Below, piece by piece: positions 3,883 to 12,583 of a DNA stretch of 34,595 nucleotides (positions are counted from its first letter, which is position 1; every line of letters begins with the position of its first letter). Below the pieces are notes generated by a model. That model was given only the letters and a program-made list of their open reading frames with translations, had not been told where the DNA came from and did not search any database. The translations under genes and the position numbers were made by a program. This DNA is from an uncultured Clostridia bacterium (lineage in GTDB: Bacteria; Bacillota; Clostridia; Lachnospirales; Lachnospiraceae): assembly GCA_947088195.1 (NCBI GenBank), contig CAMUFS010000001.1, positions 1-34,595 of the forward strand. The letters run 5' to 3'.

Positions 3883-5475
<1,593 letters not shown>

Positions 5476-6832: not shown

Positions 6833-6934
6833 TTCAAAAATAACACAAAAAGGTTCTATTTTATTATATATCAGAATATACTGTTAAAGTGTGTGTTTAA
6901 GATGTAAATTAGTAGTGCAGAAATGGGGAGTAAT

Positions 6935-7549
6935 ATGGAAATACAGGAAAAAGAGGAGAAACTTCTATATCAGAAGCTTACTTCTGAGGAGTTTATGGCA
7001 GATAGAAGGGAAGCAATTCGCTTTGTCAAAGAGTTTTTGTGGGATTGGAATCTGAAAGAACAGATACAGCAAAAGCGTATGCCTTTGAAAGCAGTGGAAG
7101 GACGGATTAAAACGCCGGAAAGTATTATAGAGAAGCTTAGAAAAAAGGGATATATGATTTCATTGAAGGGTGTGGAGCAGCTTCATGATCTGGCTGGCGT
7201 GCGTGCTGTGTGTAGTTATCTGGATGATGTGTACAGACTGAAGGAGTATATTGTGACATCAAAGAAAGTACAAGTATTGTCACAGAAGGATTATATCGCT
7301 TTGCCAAAAAAAAGTGGTTATCAGAGCTTGCATTTGCTTTTAAAGACGAGAACAGGTTTGGTAGAGCTTCAAATTCGGACGGTTGCGATGGATTATTGGT
7401 CTAATTTGGAGCATCCAGTTATATATAAGAAGGGGATTTATGCAGATGAAAAAGTGGGAAGAGAGTTAATAAGGTATGCCAGATTTTTAAGGGAAGTAGA
7501 TGGTATGTTAGTGGCGCTTAGAATGGAACGAGAAAAGCGTGTCAGATGA
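6935..7549 (+). CDS. Small alarmone synthetase (RelQ/RelP-like GTP pyrophosphokinase, RelA_SpoT domain only)
   Basis: Synthetase motifs are present: GRIKTPESIIEKL, DLAGVRAVCSYLDDVY, SGYQSLHLLL, ELQIRTVAMDYWSNLEH. The ATG at 6935 follows GGGGAG; the track start is 6923. Confidence 0.85.
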   Translation: MEIQEKEEKLLYQKLTSEEFMADRREAIRFVKEFLWDWNLKEQIQQKRMPLKAVEGRIKTPESIIEKLRKKGYMISLKGVEQLHDLAGVRAVCSYLDDVYRLKEYIVTSKKVQVLSQKDYIALPKKSGYQSLHLLLKTRTGLVELQIRTVAMDYWSNLEHPVIYKKGIYADEKVGRELIRYARFLREVDGMLVALRMEREKRVR

Positions 7550-7562
7550 CACGCCTTTCTTG
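7534..7562. terminator. Bidirectional terminator shared by the convergent alarmone-synthetase and ferredoxin genes
   Basis: GCGTGTC (7537-7543) / GACACGC (7548-7554). It is flanked by A-rich sequence on one side (read as TTTTCT on the minus strand) and CTTTCTTG on the other. It overlaps the synthetase stop codon. Confidence 0.55.
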
Positions 7563-7582
7563 TTCCATTTAACGTTTCTCTC

Positions 7583-7750
7583 TTATAAATTGATTGCGCC
7601 TGTAGGACATGCTGCTGCGCAGCTTCCACATTCAATACATGTGTCTGGATTGATCTCGTACTTTCCATCACCCTCGGAAATAGCGCCTACCGGACATTCC
7701 CCCTCGCATGTGCCACAAGATACACATTCATCGCCGATTACGTATGCCAT
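7583..7750 (-). CDS. Clostridial-type 2x[4Fe-4S] ferredoxin, 55 aa (absent from the ORF track, below its length cut-off)
   Basis: My own translation is MAYVIGDECVSCGTCEGECPVGAISEGDGKYEINPDTCIECGSCAAACPTGAINL*. It has two CxxCxxCxxxCP motifs and SD AAGGAGG 7 nt upstream of the ATG at 7750. Confidence 0.9.
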   Translation of the reverse strand: MAYVIGDECVSCGTCEGECPVGAISEGDGKYEINPDTCIECGSCAAACPTGAINL

Positions 7751-7846
7751 ACTTACATCCTCCTTAAATTCGAAATCAGGAACCTTCTTTGGTTTCTTAT
7801 CTTATTTTAGCAAAAAATATACAAGAAAACAAGTGTTAATTCATGT

Positions 7847-8608
7847 CTATTTCTCTAAATGTAGTTCTTTGCGTTTTTTGTGAAGCTCTTCTAGTATAAT
7901 GCTGCGTGCCTTGACGGCATCTGCTTTGTCAAGTGCAGGAACTCCTTTTAGGGGATATTCTATCCCCAAATTTTCATATTTTACTGCTCCCATGGTATGA
8001 TAAGGAAGTACATCCAGTGCTTTTAGGTTTGTAAGCTCTCCGAGAAAGCTTCCAAGGCGGCGCAGATATAGTTCTTTGTCCGTGATGCCGGGGACCACAA
8101 CGTGCCGTATCCAGAGAGGAATCTGATGCTTTTCCAGATATTTAGCAAATTTAAGAATCTGTTCATTGGGTTGACTGCAGAGCTTCTGGTGCTCCTCTGG
8201 ATCAATGTGCTTAATATCTAACATAACAAGATCTGTGAATGACATAAGCGCGTCCAATTTTTCTATATATGCGTGGTTTGATTCATTGTAGGCTATGCCA
8301 GAAGTATCTATGCAGGTATGAATATCTTGTTTTTTAGCTTGTTTAAATAATGCTAGTAGAAAATCAATCTGCATAAGGGGCTCACCACCTGTAACCGTCA
8401 GACCACCACCTTTTAAGAAAGGGCGATATTTCTCATAGTCGGTGAGAATCTCTTCAACAGTCATAATTGTCCCAGTATTCATCTGCCATGTGTCGGGATT
8501 GTGACAGTACAGGCAGCGCATGGGGCAGCCCTGAAAAAATACAACATAGCGGATGCCGGGACCATCCACGGTGCCAAAGGTTTCAATCGAATGAATTTTT
8601 CCATCCAT
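7847..8608 (-). CDS. pflA: Pyruvate formate-lyase activating enzyme (radical SAM glycyl-radical activase)
   Basis: N-terminal GxGxR plus CPMRCLYCHNPDTW (CxxxCxxC) and GGLTVTGGEP, all typical of PflA. It lies directly downstream of the pfl genes. Confidence 0.95.
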   Translation of the reverse strand: MDGKIHSIETFGTVDGPGIRYVVFFQGCPMRCLYCHNPDTWQMNTGTIMTVEEILTDYEKYRPFLKGGGLTVTGGEPLMQIDFLLALFKQAKKQDIHTCIDTSGIAYNESNHAYIEKLDALMSFTDLVMLDIKHIDPEEHQKLCSQPNEQILKFAKYLEKHQIPLWIRHVVVPGITDKELYLRRLGSFLGELTNLKALDVLPYHTMGAVKYENLGIEYPLKGVPALDKADAVKARSIILEELHKKRKELHLEK

Positions 8609-8624
8609 AATTTTCCTCGCTCTT

Positions 8625-8663
8625 TAAAAATATGGAGCTGTCTTAATGATGACAGCTCCATAT
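8625..8663 (-). terminator. Strong intrinsic terminator between the stand-alone radical-domain gene and pflA
   Basis: Perfect 13-bp stem ATATGGAGCTGTC (8630-8642) / GACAGCTCCATAT (8651-8663), followed by TTTTT on the minus strand (8625-8629). Confidence 0.8.
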
Positions 8664-8697
8664 TTGAAATTCTCTATTGGATCTAATTTCCTGTTCC

Positions 8698-8943
8698 TTA
8701 CATGGATTGATGGAAGGTACGGGAGATAACATCGTTCTGTTGCTCTTTTGTCAGCTTAATAAAGTTTACTGCATAGCCGGATACACGGATGGTAAGCTGA
8801 GGATATTTCTCAGGATGTGCCTGTGCATCTAACAAGGTATCTTTATTTAATACATTTACATTCAGATGATGTCCACCTTTTTCTGCATAACCATCTAACA
8901 TAGAAACAAGGTTGTCGATCTGCTGCTCATTAACTGCTGCCAT
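8698..8943 (-). CDS. Stand-alone glycyl-radical domain protein (GrcA/YfiD-like; corresponds exactly to the missing C-terminus of PFL), 81 aa
   Basis: Contains ...[66 protein letters not shown] with the RVSGY radical glycine motif. A perfect SD AAGGAGG lies 8 nt before the ATG at 8943; the track start at 8967 has no SD. Confidence 0.9.
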
Positions 8944-8956
8944 AGTATTATCCTCC

Positions 8957-9178
8957 TTATGATTCATCGGTGTCGATCCCTACATGAAGAGTAGGGATCT
9001 GACATGCCATATTTTTTGAATTACATTCGTTTGATTTTGTTTCTTCTATTTGTTTTTTTAATTGGTCGCCAAGTGCATTGACATCAATATTCATATGCCC
9101 TCCGCCTTTGGCCATAAACTGATCGAGCATAGCTACAATATCATCCTCAACCGTTTTATCAGAAATTGGCTTTTGCAT
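8957..9178 (-). CDS. 73-aa ORF: degenerate paralogue of the PFL C-terminal segment without the radical glycine motif (may be a decaying remnant)
   Basis: [25 protein letters not shown] aligns with [25 protein letters not shown] of the next ORF. The C-terminus IPTLHVGID replaces QLTIRVSGY. Only a weak, distant SD (AGGGGTGAG, about 10-13 nt). Its frame differs from the core gene. Confidence 0.45.
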
Positions 9179-9210
9179 CTGGTTACGCTCACCCCTTTCT
9201 GCGATACCTA

Positions 9211-11316
9211 TTATTTCAAATCGATCTCAAGATCCCCTGCAAATACAGTATCTTCCTTGCCAAGTGCACCCGGAATAATGGAGAACGTATTGGAAATACC
9301 ATCCTGTGCATCTTTGAATGGCAGTTTTGCCACGGATGACAGAGAAGCAAGAGCACCATGTGTATCACGTCCGTGCAGCGGATTAGCGCCCGGAGCAAAT
9401 GGCTGTGTCTTCTTACGTCCGTCTGGTGTGGAACCAGTGTTCTTGCCGTATACAACATTGGAGGTAATGGTGAGGATGGAAGTTGTCGGAACACTCTCTC
9501 TGTAGGTGTAATGGCTTCTTACCATGCTCATAAATTTGTGTACAATTTCAACGGCAATCTGATCAACACGGTCATCGTTATTTCCATATTTCGGGAAATC
9601 ACCCTCTACTTCATAATCGGTGACAACATTTTTAGCGATACCAATTATTTTAAGCTCAGATTTTGCTGTCTGAGGATTTTTTACCTTCTTTGTGATCTCA
9701 ACATCATTTCTCACTACCTTAACCTTAGCGTACTTGATTGCGGAGAGAGAATCTGCCACAACAGATAAACCAGCAATTCCAGTTGCAAAGTATCTCTTTA
9801 CTTTTCTGTCGTGAAGAGCCATCTGCACTTTCTCATAGCAGTATTTGTCATGCATATAGTGGATAACGTTGAGAGTATTGACATAAACCTCTGCAAGCCA
9901 TTTCATCATAGCAGTATATTTGTCCATAACATCATCATAGTCCAGATAATCACCCTCCACTGGTCTGTACTTAGGTCCTACCTGAACACCTGTCATTTCG
10001 TCTACGCCGCCGTTGATGGCATAGAGAAGACATTTTGCAAGGTTTGCTCTAGCGCCAAAGAACTGCATCTCCTTGCCCACTCTCATGGAGGATACACAAC
10101 ATGCGATAGCATAATCATCACCATGTGTCACTCTCATCAGATCATCGTTTTCATATTGAACAGAAGAAGTCTCAATAGAAACCTTTGCACAGAACTTCTT
10201 GAAGTTTGCTGGAAGTCTTGTGGACCACAGTACAGTCATATTTGGCTCTGGAGCTGTGCCCATATTGTGCAATGTGTGCAGGTAGCGGAAGGAAGACTTT
10301 GTCACAAGAGGACGTCCGTCAACGCCGACACCACCGATGGATTCTGTTACCCAGGTCGGATCTCCAGAGAACAGTGCATTGTATTCTGGTGTGCGGGCAA
10401 ATTTAACCAGTCTTAGCTTCATAACAAAATGGTCGATAAATTCCTGAATCTGAGCTTCTGTAAAAGTACCATTCTTTAGATCTCTCTCTGCATAGCAGTC
10501 AACAAATGTGGAGGTACGTCCCAGAGACATCGCAGCACCATTCTGCTCTTTTACTGCTGCCAAATATCCAAAGTAAATCGCCTGAATTGCCTCCTGAACA
10601 TTGGAAGCTGGCTTAGAAATATCACAGCCATAGATCTCGCCAAGGGTCTTTAGATCCTTCAGGGCGCGAATCTGTTCGGATAATTCTTCTCTGTCACGGA
10701 TGACATCGGGTGTCATAGTGTGAGAAGTGGTTGCCTTCTGCTCTTCCTTATCTTTAATCAGGAAATCAACGCCATAGAGAGCAACACGGCGGTAGTCACC
10801 GATAATACGTCCGCGTCCATAAGCATCAGGAAGACCTGTGATAATGTGATTGGAGCGGCATACTCTCATCTCAGGAGTATATGCATCAAATACACCAGCG
10901 TTGTGTGTTTTTCTGTGAACAGTGAAAAATCTCTCTACATCTGGGTCAATGGTATAGCCATTTGTGGTAAGAGCAGCCTTAGCCATATTGATACCACCAT
11001 AAGGCTGTAAGGAGCGCTTAAAAGGCTTATCTGTCTGGAAGCCTACAATTTTTTCCAGATCCTTGTCAAGATAGCCTGCTGCGTGGGAAGTGATAGTGGA
11101 TGGAACTCTGGTATCCATATCAAGGACGCCACCTGCTTCCCTTTCTTTATTTGAGAGCTCCAGCACCTGTGCCCAGAGCTTTGAAGTAGCTTCTGTCGGT
11201 CCTTCAAGGAAGGAATCATCACCTGCATAAGGGGTATAGTTTCTTTGGATAAAGTCTCTGACATCGACTTCGGTTTCCCATTTTCCGCCGACAAAGTCTT
11301 TCCATTCTGGTCTCAT
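9211..11316 (-). CDS. pflB: Formate C-acetyltransferase (pyruvate formate-lyase) catalytic core, C-terminally truncated relative to canonical ~750-aa enzymes
   Basis: PFL blocks are present throughout, including the active-site Cys-Cys ([10 protein letters not shown]). The ORF ends at ...[24 protein letters not shown] followed by tandem stops TAA TAG, so the GGxHLNVNV...RVSGY domain is absent. SD AGGAGG upstream. Confidence 0.95.
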
Positions 11317-11396
11317 TCGTTATTTCCTCCTAAACATAAAAATTTATAGTTTACTCCGATAGCCGGAGTATTTATCTAAGCTTTGTTTACATCTGT

Positions 11397-11425
11397 ATTA
11401 TATATGAATACTGTATACACGTCAA
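11397..11425 (-). promoter_or_regulatory. Near-consensus sigma-A promoter of the pfl operon
   Basis: On the minus strand, TTGACG (11425-11420), 17-nt spacer, TATAAT (11402-11397), about 80 nt upstream of the pflB ATG. Confidence 0.65.
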
Positions 11426-11507
11426 TATAAAATATATAGATTTCTTGTTCTTTTTTTAGTACAAATGGCATGTTTACAGAGATTGGAAATGGGAGATAAT
11501 GAGAGAG

Positions 11508-11547
11508 AAGAAAACAGCTAACCCGTCAAGAAAAACAGGTTAGCTGT
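11508..11547 (-). terminator. Rho-independent terminator after the DUF1858 gene
   Basis: 10-bp stem ACAGCTAACC (11514-11523) / GGTTAGCTGT (11538-11547), followed on the minus strand by TTTTCTTCTCTC. Confidence 0.8.
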
Positions 11548-11553
11548 GTGTCA

Positions 11554-11763
11554 TTAGCTTGCTTTTGTTGCCAGATATTCGTTTAATGTGTTGACAAGAT
11601 CATCCGCATTAAGTCCATGTACCATTGCAGCTTCCTCAAGGGATTCTCCCTGTGCAGAGGGGCAGCCAATGCAATGCATACCTGCGCTCATCAAAACGGG
11701 CGCGAGATTGGAGTCTATTTGTAAAATATCGTAGATAATCATATCTTTGGAAACCTGTGCCAT
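11554..11763 (-). CDS. DUF1858-domain protein (hybrid-cluster-protein-associated redox disulfide domain)
   Basis: The 69-aa ORF has the DUF1858 pattern (I.DIL...P....VL...[18 protein letters not shown].....L...N). SD AGGAGG upstream. Confidence 0.75.
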
Positions 11764-11803
11764 AATTATATCCTCCTGATTAAAATTTTAAATGTGTTGT
11801 CCA

Positions 11804-12583
11804 TTATAATACATTGCCAAGGATTTGTAAAGCGGAGCCATCAATAATTGTCTGGTAGTGTTCACGAAAATATCGTTCCTTTTCAATGGAAAAGCTCTCT
11901 TTTACTCCGTACTCGGATGTAATATTTAACACCTTATTAAAGTCCTGCGGGGTATGGGAGGACTTTGTGAGTACAAGATGATAGATATGCGTTTTCTCGT
12001 CTTTATAGAGAGAATTTCTTCCATAATAAATATTGCCTAGAATATGCGACAGCTTTTCAATCGTCTCAAAATTCTGAAAAGAATAACAGTGTGTCAGATT
12101 GCTCTGAACCTCCTGCTTCTTTGTGCTTCCGGCTTGGATGCCAGAAGGAAGGGAATCTGTGTTTGGTAAAGAATCTGCTTGTGTAGCATCTGTGTCCGCT
12201 GTCTCAGTAAATAGCTCTAACATATCCTCTGCATTGCTAAAGCTAGGTGCAGCATGGATGTCTTCCAGATCTTCCATGTCATCGAGCTCCTCGTAGGGGG
12301 GAGCAAATTTGGAAAAGCGGGTATCCAGTTCTTCGGGATCATCTACCTTAGTGATAATCAGAACGATGGATTCCGCGGACATGGGAATAGCCTCTATCAT
12401 AAGTGGAAGGTCATCGGTCTCAAAACCGACCTCATAAGAAGCTTGCTGCATCATATCACGAAAAAGGTTCTTTGCCTTCTCCGTACCGTAGGCAAGCTCA
12501 CTGATCTTGATCTCACGAGATGCAAGATCATTTTTATTTAATGTACAGCGGATTTGATTATCGTTTATTTTTTCGATCTTCAT
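11804..12583 (-). CDS. mecA: Adapter protein MecA (ClpC adaptor)
   Basis: The N-terminus MKIEKINDNQIRCTLNKNDLASREIKISELAYGTEKAKNLFRDMMQQA is typical of MecA, with an acidic linker and a C-terminal domain. SD AAGGAG upstream. Confidence 0.85.
   Translation of the reverse strand: MKIEKINDNQIRCTLNKNDLASREIKISELAYGTEKAKNLFRDMMQQASYEVGFETDDLPLMIEAIPMSAESIVLIITKVDDPEELDTRFSKFAPPYEELDDMEDLEDIHAAPSFSNAEDMLELFTETADTDATQADSLPNTDSLPSGIQAGSTKKQEVQSNLTHCYSFQNFETIEKLSHILGNIYYGRNSLYKDEKTHIYHLVLTKSSHTPQDFNKVLNITSEYGVKESFSIEKERYFREHYQTIIDGSALQILGNVL

Follow-up and report, generated by a model that had tools for sequence, protein, structure and literature searches.

The stretch of DNA analysed here (the window) comprises the first 34,595 nucleotides (nt) of contig CAMUFS010000001.1, from an uncultured Clostridia bacterium of the family Lachnospiraceae, and carries on its minus strand what its sequence identifies as a GrcA3-type split pyruvate formate-lyase (PFL) operon, pflB-core–middle gene–grcA3–pflA, with a ferredoxin gene probably as a further member. 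Glycyl radical enzymes are usually described with the radical glycine at the C-terminus of the catalytic chain. Here, Pfam and NCBIfam profiles place no RVSGY loop on the 701-amino-acid (aa) core polypeptide; the loop is carried by a separate 81-aa protein, GrcA3. Between the two genes lies a third one, coding for an uncharacterised 73-aa protein that an earlier reading of this DNA (the initial annotation) had overlooked.

The core matches the Pfam PFL-like domain (PF02901, E = 4.2e-211) and the NCBIfam PFL equivalog TIGR01255, the latter above its cut-off (1057.3 bits against 994.2) over profile positions 2–665 of 744, and covers only positions 1–50 of the 106 in the Pfam Gly_radical model. 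The remainder of that model, positions 50–106, is found on the 81-aa protein, which also matches positions 663–744 of TIGR01255 and aligns with residues 680–759 of Escherichia coli PflB, RVSGYAV included. The Cys-Cys site of the core (IACCVSS, residues 404–410) aligns with the same motif in the PDB entries 38lb and 1h16, corresponding to C418/C419 of E. coli, and both Cys406 and Cys407 are invariant across the alignment of core homologues. The core chain ends about 14 residues past ALGK, while E. coli PflB goes on for about 78 residues past ALGKDDEV, more than the 60 or so that the initial annotation had allowed for a canonical enzyme. A 23-residue insertion in the core (residues 541–563, 9628..9696 on the minus strand) has no counterpart in 38lb or in the cores of about 680 aa found in many related loci.

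The 81-aa protein belongs to the NCBIfam family GrcA3 (NF038360; 169.0 bits, cut-off 158, profile positions 1–78 of 78). Its match to spare_glycyl, the family of GrcA/YfiD proper (TIGR04365), remains below the cut-off (98.6 bits against 170) and is confined to positions 65–126. The product of pflA is recovered by the PFLA family TIGR02493 with 302.1 bits (cut-off 231.75). As initially annotated, the 701-aa core with its Cys-Cys site and TAA TAG end, the separate radical-domain cistron preceded by AAGGAGG-N8-ATG, and a strong terminator followed by pflA are all seen in the sequence (Table 1). The Shine-Dalgarno sequence of grcA3 overlaps the TAA stop codon of the middle gene (8957..8959). The hairpin between grcA3 and pflA folds with -25.1 kcal/mol (z -5.6; an equally good fold in none of 200 shuffled sequences) and is probably a partial terminator or attenuator.

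Table 1. Features of the split PFL operon and its upstream neighbour in the window.
Feature	Position	Strand	Remarks
Ferredoxin, 55 aa	7583..7750	minus	2x[4Fe-4S]; Fer4 families; directly after pflA
pflA, 253 aa	7847..8608	minus	Radical-SAM (S-adenosylmethionine) PFL activating enzyme; Pfam Radical_SAM and Fer4_12
Hairpin	8628..8665	minus	15-bp stem then UUUUU; between grcA3 and pflA
grcA3, 81 aa	8698..8943	minus	Stand-alone glycyl-radical domain; motif TIRVSGYAV
Predicted radical site Gly56 of GrcA3	8776..8778	minus	
Shine-Dalgarno sequence AAGGAGG of grcA3	8952..8958	minus	8 nt before the ATG at 8943
Middle gene, 73 aa	8957..9178	minus	GrcA3 paralogue without the radical glycine loop; frame differs from that of the core
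Tandem stops TAA TAG of the core	9208..9213	minus	After an acidic tail
pflB core, 701 aa	9211..11316	minus	PFL body without the radical glycine loop
Catalytic Cys406-Cys407 of the core	10096..10101	minus	Within YAIACCVSS
Promoter-like site	11397..11425	minus	TTGACG, 17 nt, TATAAT; 11/12 consensus matches, regional site count not above shuffles
Terminator-like hairpin	11514..11547		3' end of the DUF1858 gene, upstream of the promoter-like site of the core
DUF1858 protein, 69 aa	11554..11763	minus	HCIGCP (CxxC) motif; adjoins the core gene

Conservation of the split among related genomes

Related operons were collected by a genome scan seeded with the 73-aa family, which gave 80 species-level loci, mostly from Lachnospiraceae and other Clostridia, and the comparison with the window took in 88 related loci, belonging to Clostridia and Coriobacteriia. 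As the initial annotation had proposed to check by synteny, the split is conserved in relatives: the core lacks the radical glycine loop, being truncated at the same place, in 88 of 88 related loci from two phyla. Every core among 84 loci compared in detail stops 10–25 aa past ALGK with a tail like VFAGDLDxDL, core length ranges from 673 to 706 aa among related loci, and GrcA3 is 77–83 aa long across the 84. The order core>mid>grcA3>pflA is found in 75 of these 84 and, cut by a contig end, in 6 more; in the remaining 3 (L079, L082 and L083, all Clostridia genome assemblies) it is core>grcA3>mid, indicating that the two small genes are independent cistrons. AAGGAGG or AGGAGG precedes grcA3 in most loci, and in 76 of 84 the gene ahead of pflA is grcA3 or the middle gene. 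All operon genes compared are under purifying selection (pairwise ratios of nonsynonymous to synonymous substitution rates, dN/dS, of 0.007–0.083 for the core, 0–0.11 for grcA3 and 0.03–0.20 for pflA), the core being the most constrained of them. Since the split is natural, conserved and under selection, the radical domain must come in trans.

The stops that end the core could in principle reflect an assembly or sequencing error, or the very recent pseudogenisation of a pflB of about 760 aa, a possibility that the initial annotation had asked to exclude. Apart from the unusual gene structure itself, nothing speaks for it. An identical 81-aa protein is recorded in 509 indexed blocks of independent assemblies; among 20 contigs examined that carry it, the four places shown all have the 701+81+81+253 gene layout. 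The scan with the 73-aa family also led to two complete genomes of cultured species, Hungatella hathewayi DSM 13479 and Anaeromicropila herbilytica, and to Cuneatibacter caecimuris, Lachnoclostridium phytofermentans and Mobilisporobacter senegalensis. Hundreds of independent assemblies, and complete genomes of isolates besides, show the same structure; the in-frame stops noted at first between core and small open reading frame (ORF) number seven; and the interval encodes a conserved protein. Together this leaves practically no chance for an artefact.

A full-length fused PFL could also be made by RNA splicing, protein splicing or recoding across the 267-nt interval between core and grcA3. Core and small ORF do share a reading frame in the window, and phage nrdD genes carry introns and inteins, the nrdD gene of one viral contig that encodes a GrcA3-like protein (L091) being apparently intein-bearing. 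However, the frames of core and grcA3 differ in many related loci, which makes the common frame seen in the window coincidental, and the order of the small genes is swapped in three loci. Both small genes come with an ATG and a Shine-Dalgarno sequence of their own, the core ends in tandem stops, and the interval is itself a protein-coding gene under selection. An Rfam scan of 7500..12000 (E<=1) matched neither an intron nor any other RNA family between core and grcA3. Taken together, these observations make a fused product exceedingly improbable. The only Rfam match in the scanned region was a weak one to the ylbH leader (11417..11549, plus strand; 23 bits against a gathering threshold of 50, E 0.08), which lies on the strand opposite the pfl operon and is probably due to chance.

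Finally, GrcA3 could be a spare part as in E. coli, with the truncated core a decaying or inactive remnant and a working full-length PFL elsewhere in the genome. The title of NF038360, ‘autonomous glycyl radical cofactor’, and its short name rad_fix point in this direction and suggest that the curators had repair in mind. Yet the core is the gene of the operon with the lowest dN/dS, its truncation recurs at one place across two phyla, and it retains the Cys-Cys site, with a score above the cut-off of the PFL equivalog. Moreover, in Clostridium phytofermentans, whose locus L071 has the split layout, we take the two other genes listed as pfl to lie in microcompartment loci and not to code for true PFLs. 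These two are Cphy_1174 and Cphy_1417; in the same organism, which excretes formate, Cphy_2823 is given as pfl and cphy2820 as its activase (PMC3561251, PMC9765743), which leaves two genes between them. We consider a spare-part role beside a defunct core very unlikely.

A third protein encoded between core and grcA3

The 267-nt interval, which had been taken for a spacer, is coding and holds the conserved 73-aa ORF. The proposal of an obligate two-piece enzyme stands in so far as the radical domain is naturally split off, but in this lineage there are three pieces. The middle gene was present in the 80 genome loci of the scan and in all four loci picked through GrcA3 homologues, almost always with an ATG start preceded by a Shine-Dalgarno-like motif. 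Its homologues form 28 clusters at 90% identity, and a profile search widened the family to 207 clusters at 50% identity, almost all made up of free-standing proteins 60–90 aa long; no fusion to the core or to GrcA3 was found among the 207 representatives, and most of the longer members examined have longer linkers or acidic tails. A dN/dS of 0.04–0.42 was obtained for 11 measurable pairs. We also considered that a frameshift might fuse the core to the middle ORF, and rejected it: a TGA lies in the middle frame 17 codons upstream of the ATG, and elsewhere the gene begins at an ATG of its own after a gap of 10–130 nt.

Profile-profile comparison (hhalign) related the middle protein to the GrcA3 family with 97.3% probability (E 2.7e-11), confidently only over its N-terminal 33 aa or so, and this likeness identifies it as an ancient GrcA3 paralogue. 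Within the radical domain, the counterparts of the paralogous stretch are the helix and the GGxHxNVxV strand; an RVSGY loop is lacking in the middle protein. The family is built of two modules, of which the first is this helix plus strand and the second is SxxCxxxNMACQVPTLHxGxD followed by an acidic tail, joined by a linker that varies from about 12 to about 60 aa. Cys52, Cys59 and Thr63 show no variation across an alignment of 29 sequences, and Gly67 hardly any. Beyond a weak match to the GrcA3 family model, no Pfam or NCBIfam family model covers this conserved protein, and a search of PDB sequences gave no meaningful match. A four-Cys [4Fe-4S] site does not fit the family, as only C52 and C59 are invariant and no Fe-S family in Pfam or NCBIfam matched. 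An AlphaFold 2 (AF2) prediction of the middle protein alone from the 29 sequences yielded only a helix at residues 7–23.

Small Cys-containing subunits encoded beside a catalytic subunit are known from other glycyl radical enzymes, namely the beta and gamma subunits of benzylsuccinate synthase, which influence the radical domain, and the gamma subunit of 4-hydroxyphenylacetate decarboxylase. In contrast to the middle protein, which has two conserved Cys and is a paralogue of the N-terminal part of the radical domain, those subunits bind [4Fe-4S] through at least four Cys and are unrelated to the radical domain.

Relatives in databases and in the literature

In the PDB, the core is matched best by 38lb (739 residues) and 38la (687 residues), which share the title ‘Formate acetyltransferase’ and both lack the RVSGY domain; neither entry contains a GrcA3-like chain. 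The 38lb sequence is about 80% similar to the window core, aligned over its residues 1–697. When it was rebuilt from the alignment and searched, it proved 100% identical to a 718-aa protein (P0299) whose gene is followed by genes for GrcA3 and PflA, and whose nearest relatives are proteins of about 695 aa from Olsenella and Thermophilibacter. By this sequence match, the solved structure 38lb represents the core of a split PFL from Coriobacteriia. Loci of these Coriobacteriia have the order core>GrcA3>PflA and truncated cores, with no middle gene (for example the cores at 4001-6157 of L085 and 4001-6091 of L088; proteins P0299-P0418). Compared with the window operon, the Coriobacteriia-like lineage of 38lb is set apart by a long Cys-rich tail at the C-terminus of the core and by the absence of a middle gene. 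Such a tail, typically ...IENPAPDCGCC, is found on 120 of 120 Coriobacteriia cores. Homology of the Cys module of the middle protein to these tails was not supported, as a hidden Markov model of the module scored them no better than 2000 shuffled sequences; the two features may be functionally analogous.

Parts of the system are therefore already in databases. NF038360 has as members the window 81-aa protein, the small subunits of Coriobacteriia and those of the swapped-order loci; its name denotes a repair cofactor, yet the core has no radical domain of its own in 89 of 89 GrcA3 loci with an adjacent core (the window and the 88 others). At E<=1e-10, GrcA3 has at least 8000 hits. Current annotation labels the cores as ordinary formate C-acetyltransferase and calls the small subunit a repair cofactor. 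A literature search found no paper describing split PFL, GrcA3, or the PDB entries 38lb and 38la; the claim of no described natural example holds only in part, given the curated GrcA3 family and the 38lb structure. The one spare part discussed in a June 2026 review of glycyl radical enzymes is YfiD of E. coli, and a split PFL is not mentioned there.

The closest known counterpart is E. coli GrcA/YfiD, of which phage T4 Y06I is the viral counterpart. Like it, GrcA3 is a small stand-alone PFL radical domain, and, in line with the alignments proposed in the initial annotation, the 81-aa protein aligns with the GrcA structure 6owr (residues 67–126) and with PflB. The window core never has a radical domain of its own, in contrast to E. 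coli PflB, for which GrcA steps in only once damage has occurred; GrcA also has a disordered N-terminus of 60 residues that GrcA3 lacks. In E. coli, the PFL activating enzyme (PFL-AE) activates free YfiD, which then completes cleaved PFL (PMC13450708, PMC8683613). The strand retained by oxygen-cleaved PFL overlaps the YfiD strand, and removal of the retained region impairs rescue (June 2026 review, PMC13450708). The middle protein resembles this retained region of the radical domain, which provides a lead on its role and not a test of it.

Proposed assembly of the enzyme and neighbouring genes

From the gene content, we consider it likely that the split PFL consists of a body and a separate GrcA3 radical domain that is activated by PflA and docks in trans. 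By analogy with E. coli YfiD, PflA would install the radical on Gly56 of GrcA3, and activated GrcA3 would go on to fill the vacant socket at the C-terminus of the core, completing the active enzyme, much as GrcA/YfiD completes oxygen-cleaved PflB. The enzyme would convert pyruvate + CoA to acetyl-CoA + formate, for which formate excretion by C. phytofermentans offers indirect support. After oxygen damage, only the 9-kDa GrcA3 would have to be replaced, and grcA3, as a separate cistron, would be strongly initiated and translated. In this case abundant gut Clostridia and Coriobacteriia would have the central fermentation enzyme PFL with its radical domain as a separate small protein, a natural system in which to study the access of activases to a buried glycine, the origin of half-of-sites reactivity and the means by which anaerobes keep the cost of oxygen damage low, and phage GrcA3-like genes could plug straight into the core of such hosts.

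Our best guess for the middle protein is a non-radical placeholder, regulator or protector of the socket, since its predicted helix and strand would fit the same core socket, with a tethered Cys-x6-Cys peptide in place of the radical loop. More tentatively, it is possible that it is a purpose-built, non-radical stand-in whose Cys-x6-Cys peptide reaches the active-site region. Such a stand-in could serve one or more of three purposes: to hold a newly made or damaged core in a competent state until an activated GrcA3 takes its place, to occupy the second protomer in a dimer with half-of-sites reactivity, or to quench or protect radical and thiol chemistry when oxygen appears. If so, the enzyme would be a three-part glycyl radical enzyme with exchangeable C-terminal modules, and a natural system for how activases reach the radical glycine.

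Several points weigh against the proposed assembly. GrcA3 may in principle also serve another enzyme, for instance a full-length pflB product elsewhere. The predicted structures are poor, with a predicted local distance difference test score (pLDDT) of 55 for the middle protein and of 37.5 for a prediction of the core from a 25-sequence alignment. The Coriobacteriia systems lack the middle gene, which is thus not essential to the split design, and a protein whose linker varies as much as that of the middle protein cannot mimic the whole radical domain.

The middle protein might instead serve PflA, or some other enzyme, as substrate or partner, for example as a modified peptide or a redox or metal-binding factor, and owe its GrcA3 likeness to recognition by PflA. 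Two conserved modules on a very variable linker do look like a recognition element plus a tethered peptide, the second module has its invariant Cys52, Cys59 and Thr63 and nearly invariant Gly67, and the neighbouring genes code for a ferredoxin, a radical-SAM enzyme and often also a DUF1858 protein with a CxxC motif. Against this, the C-terminal module is highly conserved and not variable, the operon contains no peptidase, transporter or extra maturase, and the homologous segment of PflB is part of the barrel socket and not a known recognition element for PflA. We regard such a role as unlikely, and favour occupancy of the core socket by the middle protein.

The 55-aa ferredoxin may be the electron donor for PflA; in 48 of 85 loci a homologue is encoded next after pflA and on its strand, among the loci picked through GrcA3 in three of four, and in L110 a Flavin_Reduct gene occupies this position. 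A homologue of the DUF1858 protein stands beside the core, in either orientation, in 40 of 85 loci, and a redox link between its CxxC motif and the Cys motif of the 73-aa middle protein is conceivable. The operon is flanked by genes for a RelA_SpoT-type small alarmone synthetase (208 aa, 6923..7549, plus strand) and a MecA adaptor (259 aa, 11804..12583, minus strand), neighbours that are repeated in the closest related loci (L001-L004).

GrcA3-like stand-alone radical domains are also encoded by 19 viral contigs from IMG/VR (L089-L107), 16 of which have no PFL core in the flanks fetched. In L091 the GrcA3-like gene (3989-4249) lies between a gene for a 1313-aa nrdD product with apparent inteins and nrdG, followed by GroES- and GroEL-like genes. 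A truncated core adjoins the viral GrcA3-like gene in L094, L106 and L095.

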